Virus genome (UHGV): UHGV-0200554 | Origin: a virus | Length of the DNA stretch: 64,000 nt | Reading direction: 5' to 3' (one strand) | Shown here: positions 157 to 46,783 of the stretch, piece after piece | Layout of the letters: each line of letters begins with the position of its first letter | Numbering within the stretch: position 1 is the first letter of the stretch | The notes under the pieces: model-generated | Database searches by the model: none | What the model saw: only the letters and a program-made list of their open reading frames with translations | What the model was told of the DNA's origin: nothing | Position numbers and translations under genes: made by a program

Positions 157-351
157 ATGGCACTTAAAAAATTAACTGAAAAAACTCGTTGGGATATGAT
201 CGACGGGGAAGTCTATATTTTCGCCCGTAAACCTGGCGATCAAAAATGGGTAAAAGCGTTCACTTGTCACCCTGCTGTTATTGACCTCATTAAAAGTAAA
301 GGCCTACGTGAAGCAGTGGCACGTAGTCTATTAATCCCTTGCAAAGAATAA
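157..351 (+). CDS. small hypothetical protein (64 aa; track ORF 67..351 probably over-extended 5')
   Basis: ATG at 157 preceded by AAAGAGGAG RBS; followed by intrinsic terminator. Confidence 0.5.
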   Translation: MALKKLTEKTRWDMIDGEVYIFARKPGDQKWVKAFTCHPAVIDLIKSKGLREAVARSLLIPCKE

Positions 352-373
352 TATAACTGACGAAATAATAAGA

Positions 374-398
374 GGCCGCAAATAAGCGGCCTTTTTGT
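374..398 (+). terminator. rho-independent terminator (GGCCGC-loop-GCGGCC + T5)
   Basis: GC hairpin followed by TTTTT read directly in sequence. Confidence 0.6.
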
Positions 399-1059
399 TG
401 TCTGTAGTATAGTGAATCCGGTATTCAAAACAGCGGATCATTCCGCGAACGCTATGCGTGATGTGTGCATAAAATAAAATGCCTATAAATTAACCACACC
501 ACAAAAAAGCTGTATGTGCATACATAGTTTTTAAGTTTTTTCAGTTTTCAGCTGTCAAATGTGGGGCATTTTGTGAAGTATCTCACACTTTTCGGCTGAT
601 GCACATTTTATATAGCTATGTCAACAACTATAAATCTTTATAAAACAGTAAGTTACAAAGTCCATTTTTTGAAAAATCGGGTATAACTATAGGCGCGAAA
701 TTCTATTTTTCACGTAGCGTCACGATAAGATGTATCTGATAGGTATGTTTTAATTATGCAATATTAATGCATAACCAACATGTGATAAATATTCTCAACA
801 ACCCGGCAGATGTATTAAATATGGTGACTATTCCACCCCACATTATTTCAGACGGCAACTATTCCGATGTGTGATTAATATACTTTCAGGCGGTGATTAT
901 TCTGTATCTCAATAATCTATATAATATAATATTAGTAATATAATTAGATTATGAGATACAAGAAAACATCTAAAATAGTAAAATTACAATTAATGAAAAT
1001 ATATAAATTGCATAAAATAAAATAAGACAAATAACAATTTGCGAATGCAATGATCACAA

Positions 1060-1481
1060 TATGCAACGATAACATGGCGCGACCGGAGGGAGCGACATAA
1101 TAACGCTGAGTGACAATAACACCCCCGTGTTATTATCCAGCATTATTATCTCGCTAATTTATGATTATCTCATAAATTAACATGTAATAATCCTCAGCGT
1201 TATTATGTCCTCCAATAACAATAAAAATTGTTATGGTAACGCTGAGTTATTACTATGTTAATAAAAGGGCATAAAGCCCGGTACTATGTACCATTAAATA
1301 ATCTAAAACGATTACGTTTTCTCAGCGTTATTGTGTCAAATGTTATGATAACAGTATATAATTATCTTGCTAACTTTCAGTATACATATTCCGCGTAGCG
1401 TCATGTGGAGCGTGTAGTAAACCTGTAGCAAGATAAGAATAACGCTGAGGTATTGTACCGTATGCAACGATAACATGGCGC
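1060..1481. repeat. iteron block: 21-bp direct repeats TATGCAACGATAACATGGCGC at 1060-1080 and 1461-1481 flanking five copies of ATAACGCTGAG in alternating orientation (about 1095-1110, 1193-1209, 1237-1246, 1321-1337, 1438-1449)
   Basis: Exact repeats read in sequence; includes 17-bp inverted pair GACATAATAACGCTGAG / CTCAGCGTTATTATGTC. Confidence 0.6.
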
Positions 1482-1645
1482 AACTATAACAGGCCTAAAG
1501 AGTAAGATAAACAATAGTTTATGTGTATAATCGGCGGGGCCTCCTGGCTGCGCTGTGTGAAACTATCATGTATGGAAACAGTCCAGGATGTTATGATTTC
1601 AGCATGGGATTGTGTGTTTTTGAATTGTGTACGGGTAAACTGTGT

Positions 1646-1701
1646 GGGGTAAGTATAGGGGAAGTATAGGGGAAGTATAGGGGAAGTATAGGGGAAGTAT
1701 G
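1646..1701. repeat. tandem array of ~5 copies of 11-bp unit GGGGAAGTATA
   Basis: Head-to-tail copies with one-helical-turn periodicity; no spacers, so not CRISPR. Confidence 0.7.
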
Positions 1702-2008
1702 CCTAACAAATTTCGTTCTTTTTGTCAACAATTTTTCTATGAAAGTGGTCCGACCAGTTATAAGATGCATCTACGGAGCATGTTATGTAGCTGGTATGGT
1801 AGTGTGCCAGTGCAATATGATGCCCGGTCATAGCTTGTGTGGTGTACCTGTTACACCAGTAAATAGAATTAATAGCAGGCTAACTACTACAATGATTAAT
1901 CTTTTAGTGCTGTAATAAACCGCAATTATTCTCCTTTCGATTGTTTTCGTTTCCTTTCGTTTCTTATCGTTTGAGCTGTGTTTTATTCCGCGTAGCGTCA
2001 TGCTGAGC

Positions 2009-2048
2009 TGTGGATAAGTCTGTGGATAACCCTGCCTCCTGTGGATAA
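2009..2048. promoter_or_regulatory. three perfect DnaA boxes TGTGGATAA (reverse complement TTATCCACA) at 2009-2017, 2021-2029, 2040-2048, same orientation
   Basis: 9-mers match the E. coli DnaA box consensus exactly; clustered within 40 bp. Confidence 0.65.
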
Positions 2049-2911
2049 CTGGCCTGCTATGCCTGCTGTGTGGTACTATTGAACTACTGTACAAATGATC
2101 ATAAGTGCGTATAATCGGTGTTACGTATGATGAACAATACGAAGTAATAATTATTCCCACATGAGAAGGCTTATCATTTACTTAAATGTTGCTGTGGAAA
2201 ACTGTAACGCATGTTATTATTCAACCCCACACAATGAGGGCGTGAACAGTCCCCCCCTATAATCACTGTGTGCAACTATTAATCACTGTGAGTAACTACC
2301 ATGCAATAACTAGGCCAATGGTCGCAAGGCCCCGGCTATCAATTGCGTAAACAGCCTCGATATTTGAGAATCATTCGCATTATGAGAAGGAGTCGCGTTT
2401 CGCCTGCCTAATACCTCAGATGTGAGTCTGGGTGTATCGGCCCCGCACTACCCCTGCTTCAGGACAGGACCTGCGGTCCGGTGACAACAACTTGTTGTGC
2501 ACCATTGAGGATATTTGCCCCGGTTTGTATGAATACCTCTTCAGGCTGTGTACCTCCCCGTAGGGGGGGTATGGTGAGAGGTAGTACGAATAAAAAAAAA
2601 ATGAAGCCCTCTTCAGGCCTGTGATATTTGTGTGGCTGATATTTGTGGGGAATCCAGTATTTACGGGACTCCTGGACAGGGCGGGGAGGTATACACAAAG
2701 GAGGTATTATGTTAAAGATATGTTAAAATATGTGGTGCTCTTTAGGCATTATTCTTCAATGAAATCAAGTGCTTAGGCTATGTGTGGGTATTTTCTGTGA
2801 ATAATTGGCATGTTAATCGGATCAAAGAGGATTAAAGAAGGGAAATGATTTGACTCTTCATGCCACTTGTGGTATATTTTCGATACTGGTAAAGGGGGTT
2901 CGGAGGTCAGG

Positions 2912-3286
2912 ATGTTTGAGTTCAAAGCTGATGCTCAGGAGTTCTACAACAAAGTTGCTAAGCCTGTTGTGGAGTCTGTTCAGGAACACCCTGCAAGCAG
3001 ACCTACTTCTGTGGGGATAAAAGGTGTTAGCAAGTACTACAGAGGTAAACATGTGTATTACAGGGCTTACATCTGGGTAACACGCCACACTGTGAACAAG
3101 CAGTTGATCAAAACGTTTAAAACTCTGGAAGAAGCTGTAGCTCAAAGGCAGGAATGGGAACAGGTGAAGGATATTTTGGACGGGAAAGTAGCGATGGTAT
3201 TACCTTTTGAATGGGATATGGTGTATGCTTCTAAATACTGGGAAGTTTATCATGGAATGGCTCAGGAGCAGGATGAAGATTATTAA
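2912..3286 (+). CDS. stand-alone AP2-domain DNA-binding protein (homing-endonuclease-associated type)
   Basis: GGAGG RBS before ATG 2912; AP2-like signature (KGVSKYYRGK..YRAYI..KTFKTLEEAVAQRQEW); no HNH motif. Confidence 0.5.
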   Translation: MFEFKADAQEFYNKVAKPVVESVQEHPASRPTSVGIKGVSKYYRGKHVYYRAYIWVTRHTVNKQLIKTFKTLEEAVAQRQEWEQVKDILDGKVAMVLPFEWDMVYASKYWEVYHGMAQEQDEDY

Positions 3287-3801
3287 TGGACCGTGAAGGT
3301 CCGGCATGTAATGCCAGTTTATGGAATGTAATTTGTAGGCATGGAAGCTATTATTTTGCTTAGCTCTGTAATGATTAGCAGGCTGTGTGCTACAACCTTG
3401 TTGTACCTGAATCCTTAGGTTTCTAATGATTAGTTTGCTAAGTATTTATATGTGCCTAACCCCCTACCCCCGGTTCTAGTCTCCCCAACAACGCTGGTAC
3501 TTAAACTCTACCGTTATTGTGCCTTACTGCCCATATTACATCGCAGTTGGCTGGTCACTATAACCGCTCCCGCTCTCCAACCTCGACAAGCTCGTGCGAT
3601 ACTCCATTCATTCGGATGTTCACGCTGTTCACTCAGTCGATATTCCCCTATCTCCTTCAATCCGAAGAGAGAGAAACCCAGAATCGTATTCTGGAAAAGA
3701 GAGAGAAGATCTAAATTATAGCAGGAGATGAGAGGAATTGCAATATGGAGGATACCTACCAGAATTGGTAGGCATATGTGGACAGCACTTATTGACAAAA
3801 A

Positions 3802-44043: not shown

Positions 44044-45123
44044 ATGAGGTCGAAATCGAAATACTCTTCACGGATGGTGATCAGCTGTAACCCGGATTCT
44101 GAACACTATTTAGCCAAACTGGTTCGTTGGTGGCTTGACGACGAGGGCTACCCAGATGAAAGCAAGTGTGGCGTTAAGCGCTATTTCATCCGTAGGGATG
44201 GGGAATTTATCTTCGGCGATACGCCAGAAGAGTTGATCGAGAAGTATACCTATGTTAACGGCAAAGGTGTTGAGATAATCCCAAAACCACTCTCTATCGC
44301 TTTTATCGGTGCAACAATCCACGATAACCCCATCTGCTTGCGTGATAACCCAGAATATCTTGCATTCCTGGAAGGTCTGCCAGAGCTGGAAAAAGCACAA
44401 CTCCTCTACGGTAACTGGTTCGCTAAGCCTGAAGGTGCAAACTATTTCAGTCGCACATTCTTGAAAGATGCGGATCATGTCCCCCTCGGAGCAGTTTCTG
44501 TAAGAGCATGGGATAAAGCTGGTACAGAACGTACCTCTGGCAACAAATTCCCCGACTATACAGCCAGTATCAAGGTCAGTAAGGATAGTGATGGTTACTA
44601 CTACATCTCCGGTGACTATTGCCCTGAAAACGTAGATGATGGCAGATATTCTACGGGCTTGCACGGTAAGTTCTGCAAGAAAGCTGGGGAACGTGATGTT
44701 ATTATCAAGAAACAGGCAGAGTTTGATGGTGAGGACTGCGTAATTGTCTTCTCTGTGGACCCCGGTCAGGCAGGTAAGAGTGAGTTTCTTACTTCATCTC
44801 GTAAACTTCTTGCCGGAGGGTTCAGGGTAGAAGAAGACCCAATGCCGTCTAACAAATCAAAACTCACCCGTTTCTCCCCGTTTGCCAACCTTGCCCAACA
44901 AGGGATGGTGCGGCTTGTCCGGTCAAGTTTCGACCCGGATACACTGGAAGCATTTTTGACAGAGCTGGAGAAATTTAACGGCGAACGGTCAACCTTTAGC
45001 CGTAAAGATGATTGGGCTGACTCCATTGCTTCTGCAATTAACTACCTTGAAAAAGAGGAAGTTGCTATGCCATGTGTTATTCCGAAGATTGTTTCACCCT
45101 CTATGTATAAGAGGATGATTTAA
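44044..45123 (+). CDS. terL: terminase large subunit, exon 2 (ATPase end and nuclease domain; true 5' exon boundary is upstream of this ATG)
   Basis: YLISRMRS...VISCNP and acidic nuclease-like C-terminal region; frame open upstream to ~43921. Confidence 0.7.
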   Translation: MRSKSKYSSRMVISCNPDSEHYLAKLVRWWLDDEGYPDESKCGVKRYFIRRDGEFIFGDTPEELIEKYTYVNGKGVEIIPKPLSIAFIGATIHDNPICLRDNPEYLAFLEGLPELEKAQLLYGNWFAKPEGANYFSRTFLKDADHVPLGAVSVRAWDKAGTERTSGNKFPDYTASIKVSKDSDGYYYISGDYCPENVDDGRYSTGLHGKFCKKAGERDVIIKKQAEFDGEDCVIVFSVDPGQAGKSEFLTSSRKLLAGGFRVEEDPMPSNKSKLTRFSPFANLAQQGMVRLVRSSFDPDTLEAFLTELEKFNGERSTFSRKDDWADSIASAINYLEKEEVAMPCVIPKIVSPSMYKRMI

Positions 45124-45223: not shown

Positions 45224-46783
45224 GTGTCCAAGAAAAGCCGTAGGAAAAACAACGCAGCAGCCAAAGCGAGGGCTGTGAAAAAAGCTGGAAATCAAGATGC
45301 CCAGGTGCACAATGTTCGTCTGGGAGAGATTGGTTCCGGTGCACTGGCTCAGATCCAATTTGAATCTCAGCAGATGATGGTTGAGGAGTTGCGTTGGCCC
45401 AACCTTATCGCTACCGTAGAGACGATGAAATGCGACTCAACAGTAGCTACCGCTCTGGATTCTAAATATGTACTGATCACCAAAGCCTTCAACGATTTCA
45501 AAATTCTCTGTAATGAAGAGAGTGAAGAATCTAAGAAAGCAGCAGCATTTATCGACTATGCCCTGCGTAATCTCTCTAATCAGCAAACACTTCGTGATAT
45601 TGCAAGAAGTGCAGCCACCTTTAATGAATACGGCTTCTCAATATTTGAGAAAGTTTACCGTCGTGAACAGGAAGGGGAGTACGCTGGTAAATTAGTTATT
45701 GACAAGTTTGCATTCAGACCTCAAGCGAGCCTGTCCCGCAGTAACCCGTTCCAGTTTGATAAAAATAGTCGTAAACTTGAAGGTATATGGCAGTCACCGA
45801 ATGCGTTTGTTAATTTCAAACGTAATTCATACGCTGGCCCACTACTTTCTGCTCCGGCAAACTTCAACGGTGAGGAGATTTTCATTCCGGCTAAGAAAAT
45901 CATGATCATGACTCTTTCCGGTACAGAGTCCAATCCGGCAGGTGTTTCACCTATGATTGGTTGTTACAGATCCTTCCGTGAGAAAGTGCTGATCGAAAAC
46001 CTGGAAGTGGTTGGTTGCTCCAAAGATCTTGGTGGTGTGCTTGAGCTGAAAATACCGTCCAACATTCTGAATAAAGCAAGTATCGACCCCACCTCAATGG
46101 AAGGTCAGATGGTTGCTAACCTGATGGCAGATGCTGCAAATGCCCACTCCGGTGAACAGAGTTTCTTTATTCTCCCATCGGATCGTGATAAATCAGGTAA
46201 AGAACAGTATTCCATGGACCTGAAAGGGATCAATGGTGCTGGTAAACAATACTCCACCAAAGATCTTGTTGATGCACGTAAGAAAGCTATCCTTGATAGA
46301 TTTGGTGCTGGTTTTATTAACTTAGGTAACGACAACGTTGGTTCTTACTCGTTGTCCGAGTCCAAACAGTCTTTACATGGTCACTTCGTTAACCGTGATA
46401 TTGACATTATTGTTGAGGCTTTCAACAAAGACTTCATTCCCCAGATGCTGGCGCTGAACGGTATCTACCTCTCCAATGAGGATATGCCGAAACTCAAACC
46501 AGGGTTGACTGAAAAAGTTGACATGGAAGAGTTCTCCAAATTCGTACAGCGTATTGGTGCAGTTGGTTATCTGCCTAAAACTCCGGGTGTTATCAATAAA
46601 ATCCTTGAAGTTGGTGGTTTTGACTACCGCGTTGATGAGGATATTGACACTGAAGAGTTAATGCAAATACTGGGTCAGGATGTAAGTCGGTCAGGTGACG
46701 GTATGGCGGCGGGGACCAACGGTAATGGCACGTCCAGAATGTCATCCACACGCGATAATTCTGTATCAAATATGGAAAATTAA
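45224..46783 (+). CDS. portal protein (putative)
   Basis: 519-aa ORF immediately after terminase; assignment by size and position. Confidence 0.5.
   Translation: MSKKSRRKNNAAAKARAVKKAGNQDAQVHNVRLGEIGSGALAQIQFESQQMMVEELRWPNLIATVETMKCDSTVATALDSKYVLITKAFNDFKILCNEESEESKKAAAFIDYALRNLSNQQTLRDIARSAATFNEYGFSIFEKVYRREQEGEYAGKLVIDKFAFRPQASLSRSNPFQFDKNSRKLEGIWQSPNAFVNFKRNSYAGPLLSAPANFNGEEIFIPAKKIMIMTLSGTESNPAGVSPMIGCYRSFREKVLIENLEVVGCSKDLGGVLELKIPSNILNKASIDPTSMEGQMVANLMADAANAHSGEQSFFILPSDRDKSGKEQYSMDLKGINGAGKQYSTKDLVDARKKAILDRFGAGFINLGNDNVGSYSLSESKQSLHGHFVNRDIDIIVEAFNKDFIPQMLALNGIYLSNEDMPKLKPGLTEKVDMEEFSKFVQRIGAVGYLPKTPGVINKILEVGGFDYRVDEDIDTEELMQILGQDVSRSGDGMAAGTNGNGTSRMSSTRDNSVSNMEN

Follow-up and report, generated by a model that had tools for sequence, protein, structure and literature searches.

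The window, as we call the whole stretch of 64,000 nucleotides of viral DNA analysed here (UHGV virus genome UHGV-0200554), comes from an uncultured rV5-like (Vequintavirinae) myophage whose structural genes share about 75% nucleotide identity with the rV5 group. At about 400-2900 it contains a region of about 2.5 kb that is poor in open reading frames (ORFs) and lies between convergent gene blocks, and within this region we studied a cassette of direct and inverted repeats at positions 1060-1481. The cassette region is located downstream of a terminator at 370-395, between convergent operons, and the flanking genes encode a 64-aa protein (phrog_20168) and a 124-aa protein with a weak HNH-like match in PHROG. 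A megablast search with positions 300-3000 found no matches among GenBank phages, and a distant blastn search detected just two short conserved blocks, in rV5-like phages. A 139.6-kb metagenome scaffold (L097) is 99.7% identical to the window over the cassette region. The genome paper on rV5 (2013) draws the equivalent region as a 'non-coding' box and predicts no promoter or terminator there. According to a 2025 transposon-sequencing preprint, the equivalent intergenic region of Bas54, about 2 kb long, received zero insertions, from which an important role was concluded.

An initial annotation of the window, made from the letters alone, had described identical 21-bp direct repeats that flank five copies of a motif in alternating orientation, including a 17-bp inverted pair, next to a very AT-rich stretch, and had compared this arrangement to initiator-binding iterons or a packaging recognition site. 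The description is confirmed, with one correction. The 21-mer TATGCAACGATAACATGGCGC occurs exactly twice in the 64 kb, as two identical direct repeats (DR-L and DR-R, Table 1), and no further copies were found in the 64 kb even with up to three mismatches allowed (0.01 chance matches expected). The motif ATAACGCTGAG, with at most one mismatch, has eight matches where 0.66 are expected, a number reached in 0 of 100 shuffles; five of the eight lie inside the cassette, and the (A/G)TAACGCTGAG form is confined to the interval between the two 21-mers. The number of motifs in the cassette and their strict alternation (+,-,+,-,+) are as annotated, while their exactness had to be corrected: only four of the five copies are exact, and copy 3 reads GTAACGCTGAG, with one mismatch. 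Their start-to-start spacings are 93, 43, 85 and 118 bp. The inverted pair is 100% complementary over its 17 bp, with a spacer of 82 nt, and the neighbouring DNA is indeed AT-rich, with a GC content of 0.255-0.28 at 801-1100 and 0.21 at 876-1065, compared with 0.434 for the whole window.

Table 1. Coordinates of the repeats, hairpins and related features in and around the cassette (positions in the window)
Feature	Position	Strand	Remarks
AT-rich hairpin, arms 902-919/946-962	902..962		one bulge; upstream of the cassette; predicted by single-stranded DNA folding
DR-L, left 21-bp direct repeat, TATGCAACGATAACATGGCGC	1060..1080	+	final 5 bases overlap the conserved core
GC-rich core, GGCGCGA-N9-GCGACATAATA	1076..1102	+	possible mini-hairpin CC-GGA-GG in the spacer, 1083-1089
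P1 left arm, GACATAATAACGCTGAG	1094..1110	+	holds motif copy 1; perfect 17-nt inverted repeat with 1193-1209
Motif copy 1	1100..1110	+	
Hairpin H1, AATAACAC-CCCC-GTGTTATT	1115..1134		within the P1 spacer; predicted by folding
Hairpin H2, TTTATGA-TTATC-TCATAAA	1158..1176		within the P1 spacer; predicted by folding
P1 right arm, CTCAGCGTTATTATGTC	1193..1209	-	holds motif copy 2; complement of the left arm
Motif copy 2	1193..1203	-	
Hairpin ATAACAAT-AAAA-ATTGTTAT	1215..1234		part of the 128-bp module that is present or absent
Motif copy 3, GTAACGCTGAG	1236..1246	+	10-bp pairing with copy 4
Window-specific 37-nt insertion with GGGC-ATAAA-GCCC	1262..1298		in the loop between copies 3 and 4; not in L017, L039, L093
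Motif copy 4, arm CTCAGCGTTATTGTGTC	1321..1337	-	motif at 1321-1331; able to pair over 10 bp with copy 3 or over 12 bp with copy 5
Inverted repeat P3, arms 1357-1372/1426-1441	1357..1441		88% complementary
Motif copy 5, ATAACGCTGAG	1439..1449	+	invariant in the lineage; 11 nt upstream of DR-R
DR-R, right 21-bp direct repeat	1461..1481	+	second copy of TATGCAACGATAACATGGCGC
11-bp tandem array GGGGAAGTATA, 4-5 units	1642..1700	+	adjoins the left edge of the predicted repeat
Predicted direct terminal repeat, about 704 bp	1705..2408		placed by homology

The same layout, built from different repeat sequences, is present in phage magaca (rV5 type), and the window, magaca and Klebsiella phage DP have in common a core that can be written as GGCGCGA-N7-9-GCGACAYAATA. 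Scanning this pattern over viral and metagenome collections, with loci from GenBank added, retrieved 28 true homologues belonging to four lineages, and in every one of them the core runs into a perfect inverted repeat, which we term P1. Related phages had been proposed as the place to look for conservation, and the core and P1 are retained in all of these 28 homologues. The P1 arms are 16-21 nt long, perfect in 28 of 28 homologues, and enclose spacers of 47-211 nt. Within the core, the spacer follows the form C-[G(G/T)A]-G throughout the lineages, its second pair being C:G, A:T or G:C. Hairpin H1 also has a counterpart at the same place in the rV5 lineage, ATCAC-CCCC-GTGAT.

Although the outer part of the P1 arm, GCGACAYAATAAC, is conserved across lineages, the inner tip varies even among close relatives. 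At least seven arm sequences exist, with tips such as ACGAGAG, ACGGGAG, ACTAGGG, ACGAGGG, GCTGAG, GCAGTAG and AAAAGCAG, and the two arms are always exactly complementary. We evaluated this covariation in a trimmed alignment of eight P1 arm types, with 500 shuffles and with controls in which the partner was slid by 1-3 columns. Nine of the 21 pairs are altered on both sides (22 cells); none of the 500 shuffles scored as high, and the signal collapses in the slid controls. The 18 core pairs of P1 contain no wobble or unpaired cell, with 0 G-U among 144 cells in the eight arm types. Moreover, in no lineage does the terminus region hold a further copy of the arm tips. Since the tips vary and yet are found at no other place there, the conserved property is complementarity rather than a recognised word.

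A closer view is offered by the seven genomes that could be aligned as the lineage of the window (the window itself, L003, L017, L025, L039, L074 and L093). DR-L, the core, P1 and H1 are identical in all seven, the sole differences being a single DR base in L017 and a single base of the H1 loop in L074, so the left half of the cassette is near-invariant while the flanks vary. The number of motifs, on the other hand, is three in L025 and L074, four in L003 and five in the window, L017, L039 and L093, and a 128-bp module between two direct copies of CTCAGCGTTATT is either present as a whole or absent among these relatives. L017 has copies 3 and 4 altered together (GCTGAG/CTCAGC to GCTGGG/CCCAGC), with copies 1, 2 and 5 unaltered; L093 carries a one-sided change in this pair (pair 2, copies 3 and 4). 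Because pair 2 covaries alone in L017, the five motif copies are not equivalent sites for one protein. They are a lineage-specific amplification of P1 arms, and not equivalent iterons.

The comparison to initiator-binding iterons made in the initial annotation is therefore not upheld. Iterons are direct repeats of the same orientation, usually in helical phase, that bind one initiator, whereas the copies in the cassette alternate, are irregularly spaced, covary as pairs and number three to five in close relatives. In lineages with different arms, there is a single pair (in the D lineage, a pair and one shorter inner copy), which weakens the comparison further. No initiator gene was found among the flanking genes, more distant genes not having been searched. 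An AT-rich stretch does adjoin the repeats, as would be expected of an unwinding element, but it holds a hairpin of its own at 902-962, which in five lineage members (positions 876-1065 folded) occurs as two compensated haplotypes, GTATCTCAATAATCTA/TAGATTATGAGATAC and GTCTATCAATAATTTA/TAAATTATGATAGAC. Because this hairpin covaries, the stretch is not a plain unwinding element.

Insertions are tolerated in the loops of the cassette, with the stems left intact. L025 has an 84-nt insertion exactly within the CCCC loop of H1, and in L017, L025 and L074 the H2 loop has taken up 47 nt of GC-rich sequence. Two insertions specific to the window, of 37 and 32 nt, sit in the loops of pairs 2 and 3; the latter (1379-1410, in the P3 loop) is missing from six of six relatives and includes an element, CGCGTAGCGTCATG, that has three occurrences, at 711, 1392 and 1989. 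Compared with shuffled sequences, the cassette folds with z = -9.7 as single-stranded DNA (ssDNA), and with z = -9.6 (+ strand) and -7.4 (- strand) as RNA. With stems of 17-21 bp, spacers of up to 211 nt and loop insertions of 47-84 nt, these comparisons point to folding of a single strand, either ssDNA or RNA, over extrusion of a cruciform.

The most informative comparison is that with the genome ends of relatives. A direct terminal repeat of 514 bp was measured in Klebsiella phage KPP-1 by doubled coverage and PhageTerm, and it falls in the homologous ORF-poor region. The record of phage DP is annotated with identical 514-bp repeats at both ends, and that of KP12 starts at the same base. Gotham, of the rV5 lineage, has identical 459-bp repeats at both record ends; HdK5, ECP2303 and EcoIv14a_Aya end at the same base as the Gotham repeat, and bov11CS3 and bov25_3 at its other edge. 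In the relatives anchored in this way, the cassette homologue is always on the same side of the repeat and 130-240 bp from its inner edge: the distance is 133 bp from DR-R in the rV5 lineage and 238 bp from P1 in DP. The order common to these genomes is a gene block, AT-rich DNA, the cassette, 130-240 bp with short direct arrays, the terminal repeat, a GC-richer conserved block and another gene block.

By homology, the terminal repeat of the window is predicted to occupy about 1705-2408, in which case DR-R ends 223 bp before it. On the right, position 2408 aligns to the edge of the Gotham repeat (score 72), and a blast match agrees. On the left, Gotham and DP share a signature consisting of RACA at the edge, a pyrimidine run, and TTGTCAA 17-18 nt inside the edge; the window reads AACAAATTTCGTTCTTTTTGTCAAC from 1705. 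This edge motif is invariant in the relatives that cover the edge, and in most lineages it follows the core by 380-611 bp. Local alignment of the Gotham and DP left edges to the window gave spurious low-score placements and was set aside, so the left edge is placed by the motif signature. We also considered the 21-bp DRs, which are spaced 229-401 bp apart, as the boundaries of the terminal repeat, and rejected this because the annotated repeats of Gotham and DP begin 130-240 bp past the cassette. Another candidate, a motif bridging the two repeat edges, was rejected since the arm tip is absent near the other repeat edge in every lineage. Contig ends are uninformative for the termini: L003 ends at the equivalent of about 2546, and in L097 the region is internal. 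The IMG/VR contig behind L003 terminates exactly at a CCTCTTCAGG.

We interpret the cassette as a conserved cis element that is selected for intra-strand pairing and lies on one side of the terminal repeat, in a region reported as essential in Bas54. With regard to its function, we tentatively favour a stem-loop cis element for chromosome-end maturation or packaging, which the sequence comparisons make quite possible, though they leave it short of probable. This reading is supported by the fixed position near the terminal repeats of relatives, the covariation of P1, the insertions that spare the stems and the insertion-free region of Bas54. The universal unit consists of the GC-rich core, a long perfect P1 that encloses small hairpins, and usually a flanking direct repeat. 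It would be situated in unique DNA just inside one copy of the terminal repeat, which in a concatemer corresponds to 223 bp upstream of the left cut site. The cassette would fold on becoming single-stranded, as might happen when a strand is displaced or an end resected at the junction of a concatemer. Along with the conserved core and outer arms, the folded form would then flag this junction as a site of end maturation. End maturation could here mean duplication of the terminal repeat, which is present as a single copy in concatemers, and/or the start of terminase action. The packaging half of the initial interpretation fares better than its iteron half in this respect, as the homologous cassette is located 130-240 bp inside a genome end.

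A more specific version of the end-maturation reading is speculative, and we consider it unlikely as it stands. In this version, the cassette would represent a so far unrecognised type of telomere-proximal maturation signal in phages with short direct terminal repeats. A multi-hairpin element would be recognised as single-stranded DNA, duplication of the terminal repeat would be primed or directed by its stems, the end would be passed to terminase, and the 21-bp DRs would be kept identical for a strand-exchange or template-switch step.

Known end-processing signals offer partial parallels. At the concatemer junction of T7 and T3, a pacB site and a hairpin-forming site reportedly lie just to the inside of the right terminal repeat (Chung and Hinkle 1990; Chung, Nardone and Hinkle 1990). 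The T7 hairpin has been proposed to allow duplication of the repeat during concatemer processing. As in T7-type signals, the cassette is a cis element in unique DNA that sits within a few hundred bp of one end only and contains an inverted repeat capable of forming a hairpin; a short exact direct terminal repeat like that of T7 is seen in the relatives Gotham, DP and KPP-1. However, their sequences are dissimilar, and the cassette is much larger, with nested hairpins, a GC core and flanking 21-bp DRs, in a myovirus of 137-148 kb. A second group of signals comprises the terminase recognition sites built from repeats, namely lambda cosB (R1-R3), the pac site of phage P1 (hexamer clusters on both sides of the cut) and SPP1 pacL/pacR. 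The cassette resembles them in that short repeats are clustered within a few hundred bp of the point of cleavage and that a segment is flanked by direct repeats; a distance of a few hundred bp from a physical end is found in relatives, and in the window by homology. In contrast to those repeats, which are equivalent protein sites located by or in the terminase genes, the cassette copies covary as complementary pairs and their number is not conserved.

Several observations weigh against a role in end maturation or packaging. Many pac sites are located in or beside the terminase genes, and here the terminase gene is about 42 kb from the cassette (TerL fragment at 44044-45123, portal gene at 45224-46783). 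A T7-type signal contains a promoter for the phage RNA polymerase, and packaging depends on transcription, and rV5-like phages use host sigma-70, with no counterpart of phiOR in the element. The terminal repeat of the window, about 704 bp as predicted from homology, would be longer than the 459-514 bp of its relatives. Two papers based on PhageTerm call Vequintavirus genomes circularly permuted or headful. Finally, the DRs behave in a way that the stems do not account for. They are separated by 243-401 bp in the lineage of the window and by about 230-260 bp in the rV5 lineage (229 bp being the overall minimum), and in two genomes both copies carry the same alteration, T>C in L017 and, within the rV5 lineage, G>T in L037; in L093, just one copy is changed. 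The flanking DR is not universal, being absent from the D lineage, and in Mydo-like phages the second copy is inside the P1 loop. Because base pairing cannot explain the concerted changes, either gene conversion or a protein that reads both copies is needed, and gene conversion could also be what keeps the inverted repeats perfect.

The alternative that survives best is a palindromic replication origin, which we regard as somewhat unlikely. The outer arms GCGACAYAATAAC (5'-TATTRTGTC-3' on each strand) would be symmetric sites of recognition or priming for a T7-gp4-like primase-helicase or another initiator, the P1 spacer would melt, and bidirectional or rolling-circle replication would start beside the genome end. 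The base composition is suitable (GC 0.29 in the P1 spacer, 0.21 in the upstream flank), and the retention of the primary sequence of the core and outer arms across otherwise dissimilar lineages suggests recognition by a protein. T7 primase recognises 5'-GTC-3', with GTGTC as a strong site, and the arms end in TGTC or GTGTC, but GTC is too short to count as evidence. A primase-helicase of the gp4 type and a family A polymerase are encoded by rV5, whose promoters, like those of rV5-type phages, are of the sigma-70 kind. An origin would also be in keeping with the whole Bas54 region being essential. There is no adjacent initiator gene (the flanking genes were checked and more distant genes were not searched), however, and recognition of double-stranded DNA does not need arm tips that are variable and strictly complementary. 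In addition, 10-bp phased repeats (1932-1971) and three DnaA boxes (2009-2048) lie about 500 bp away, in the predicted terminal repeat.

Established iteron or palindromic origins include lambda ori, oriR of phage P1, P4 ori/crr and oriS of herpes simplex virus. The cassette is like them in having AT-rich DNA by its repeats, in placing inverted sites on either side of a spacer that is AT-rich, an arrangement known from oriS, and in being close, in this lineage, to DnaA boxes of the host type; it differs from them in lacking an adjacent initiator gene and helically phased iterons, with the DnaA boxes and phased repeats about 500 bp off. A further point for an origin comes from ICP1, in which a late, rolling-circle-like origin maps by the terminus in a 1.3-kb ORF-less gap (PMC7145576). 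ICP1 resembles the rV5-like phages in this large ORF-less gap with a physical terminus and in a polymerase and helicase homologous to those of rV5, but its early theta origin is far from the terminus, it has been interpreted as a headful packager (PMC7145576), and its gap has no homologous cassette: the core, P1 and DR were not found in ICP1 positions 1-1700.

Two observations made alongside concern these comparisons. For ICP1 (L096, HQ641347), PhageTerm 'pac' positions are given at 431 (+) and 891 (-), that is, 460 bp apart, matching the 459-bp Vequintavirus repeat; rather than being a headful packager, ICP1 may thus carry short terminal repeats of the direct type. In the window, the three exact DnaA boxes (TGTGGATAA, at 2009, 2021 and 2040) are the sole three in the 64 kb, and just before them, inside the predicted repeat, are four 10-bp phased repeats of the TCCTTTCGTT type (TTTCGTT). 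Two or three DnaA boxes, with variable spacers, are present in seven of seven genomes of the window lineage and none in the rV5, Mydo-like and D lineages; TTTCGTT arrays are present in the D lineage too. Compared with the cassette, the block at 1932-2048 has more of the appearance of a classical origin.

An array of protein-binding sites in double-stranded DNA is a less probable explanation, and one that we consider improbable. In this reading, which is the one meant by the initial annotation, the DRs and the ATAACGCTGAG copies would bind one phage protein (the small subunit of terminase, an initiator or a repressor), and the DNA would be bent or looped, as at lambda cosB, P1 pac, SPP1 pacL/pacR or plasmid iterons. 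Such an array would agree with the clustered and highly non-random repeats, and a site beside the cut sites would suit recognition by terminase. The identical alteration of both DRs in two independent genomes (L017 and L037) would also fit a co-evolving binding protein. The motif copies argue in the other direction. L017 alters copies 3 and 4 on both sides and leaves copies 1, 2 and 5 as they are; close relatives have three to five copies and other lineages a single full-length pair; and the fast-diverging tips stay perfectly complementary, which independent sites would not need. Nor is the geometry kept, with spacings of 44-128 bp between copies and 229-401 bp between DRs, no flanking DR in the D lineage and the second DR inside the P1 loop in Mydo-like phages.

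That the repeats are neutral or selfish palindromes of a recombination-prone spacer, with quasi-palindromes held perfect through template switching and repeats through gene conversion, and devoid of function, appears quite improbable. The concerted evolution of both direct and inverted repeats would be consistent with it, as would the small GC-rich insertions, the duplicated module and the changes in copy number of tandem arrays between genomes that are 99.7% identical. On the other hand, the core and P1 have kept their place, and their side relative to the terminal repeat, in four lineages that can no longer be aligned in the flanks, the left half is near-identical in seven lineage members with variable flanks, and the homologous region of Bas54 is essential.

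Least probable, and in our view very unlikely, is a structured noncoding RNA of about 400 nt encoded beside the genome end, with a packaging or regulatory role, conceivably in the manner of the phi29 pRNA. RNA folds are predicted strongly on both strands (z = -9.6 and -7.4), stems covary while loops vary freely, and the one-sided change of pair 2 in L093 would give a G-U pair on a minus-strand transcript. Nevertheless, the absence of G-U pairs from the 144 core P1 cells is odd for RNA stems, and no Rfam family was found above its threshold (the best match scored 30.8 bits against a gathering cut-off of 55.2, and permissive E-values gave chance matches only). A scan for terminators and promoters that could support a cassette transcript found no enrichment, with 13 sigma-70-like sites where 11.7 are expected; neither promoter nor terminator was predicted by the authors of the rV5 paper, and the cassette lies downstream of a terminator and between convergent operons. 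A miniature inverted-repeat transposable element or insertion sequence can be dismissed, given that the P1 arms are 13 nt inside DR-L but 251 nt from DR-R, that the DR is 21 bp long and that there is one conserved locus per lineage.

The loops of the cassette and its surroundings contain further small elements. GC-rich mini-elements with C-GTA-G hairpins (CGCGTAGCG, GGCGTAGCC, GACGTAGTC and CTGGCGTAGCCAG) are located in the window at 706-724, 1387-1411 and 1984-2008; they are restricted to the non-coding region, all on the + strand in the window, and two of the three copies are specific to the window. In the cassette they occupy hairpin loops; the insertions in L017, L025, L074 and L002 are of this kind, with 47-nt and 84-nt versions in relatives. 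One possibility is that they are very small mobile elements for which extruded hairpins serve as targets. Hairpins of ssDNA with GNA triloops are known from the complementary-strand origins of G4 and phiX174, from the N4 promoters for the virion RNA polymerase and from mini-hairpins of the d(GCGAAGC) type. By inspection, the core spacer C-[G(G/T)A]-G and the loop insertions with C-GTA-G hairpins (CGCGTAGCG, GGCGTAGCC, GACGTAGTC) resemble these; rV5-like phages differ in being double-stranded and in having no known virion RNA polymerase.

The 11-bp tandem array that precedes the predicted repeat edge has two to five units in relatives (AAGTATGCCTA type) and one unit fewer in L097. Repeats GTAAACAGT/GGAAACAGT in the same orientation are also found between cassette and repeat edge (window 1574-1643; L001 about 870-960; L011; L017). 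By a regular-expression search, they have three to seven matches in rV5-type genomes (mostly 15-16 bp apart), two to four in most relatives of the window and two in the window. Of everything in the region, these same-orientation repeats bear the closest likeness to iterons, and they are candidate sites for terminase or an initiator. On the far side of the predicted repeat, CTCTTCAGG occurs twice (2537 and 2609) and GATATTTGTG twice (2623 and 2638) within 2537-2647; positions 2601-2697 are 76% identical to rV5-type phages, with flanks that do not align. This block may be the partner signal of the other genome end. At 2580-2591 the window has a run of about ten A, whose length is not the same in L097 (99.7% identical). 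The Logan contigs L098, L099 and L100, which come from three independent short-read assemblies of close relatives, all break in the AT-rich hairpin region (the equivalent of about 870-990), shortly before the cassette, and the break in L002 falls within the cassette itself. In published or metagenomic assemblies of these phages, this part of the genome may often be split or wrongly joined.

Upstream, positions 536-716 of the window align with rV5-type phages at 67% identity over 194 nt (E = 2e-16) and include TGTCAACAACTATAAATCTTTATAA and GAAAAATCGGGTATAACTATAGG. In L097, the block upstream of the non-coding region (1714-1980) contains a small gene with a ParE_like Pfam match (PF24732) in the pre-computed annotation of relatives. 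Downstream, the gene for the 124-aa protein (2912-3286, + strand) is equipped with a good ribosome-binding site, and a promoter-like site is found at 2850-2878. Its product shows weak PHROG similarity to HNH endonucleases (E = 6e-5), with no Pfam support. The gene is present in L002, and the whole segment of about 2820-3494 is missing from rV5-type genomes. We regard it as a probable lineage-specific insertion next to the genome end; as a candidate for an accessory nuclease of terminase it was rejected in view of the weak PHROG match, the lack of Pfam support and its absence from rV5-type genomes.

Short terminal repeats in some Vequintavirinae are already on record, and we found no account in the literature of the cassette, of its covariation or of the constant place it occupies next to the repeat. 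The only large non-coding region of rV5-type phages, drawn as a box in 2013 and reported as essential in 2025, can now be split into testable parts: a covarying stem-loop cassette, direct-repeat arrays, a terminal repeat with two cut sites and a conserved far-side block. The constraint on complementarity provides designs for stem-breaking and compensatory mutants and for packaging tests with junction plasmids. Phages of the rV5 type are widely used candidates for therapy and biocontrol, and knowledge of physical ends and cis signals is needed for genome engineering, for rebooting from synthetic DNA, and for orienting and annotating records with arbitrary starts. If the element indeed acts as a multi-hairpin signal in the way set out above, the intergenic region of about 2 kb in Vequintavirinae would be a compact organiser of the chromosome end that unites signals for origin function, repeat duplication and packaging.

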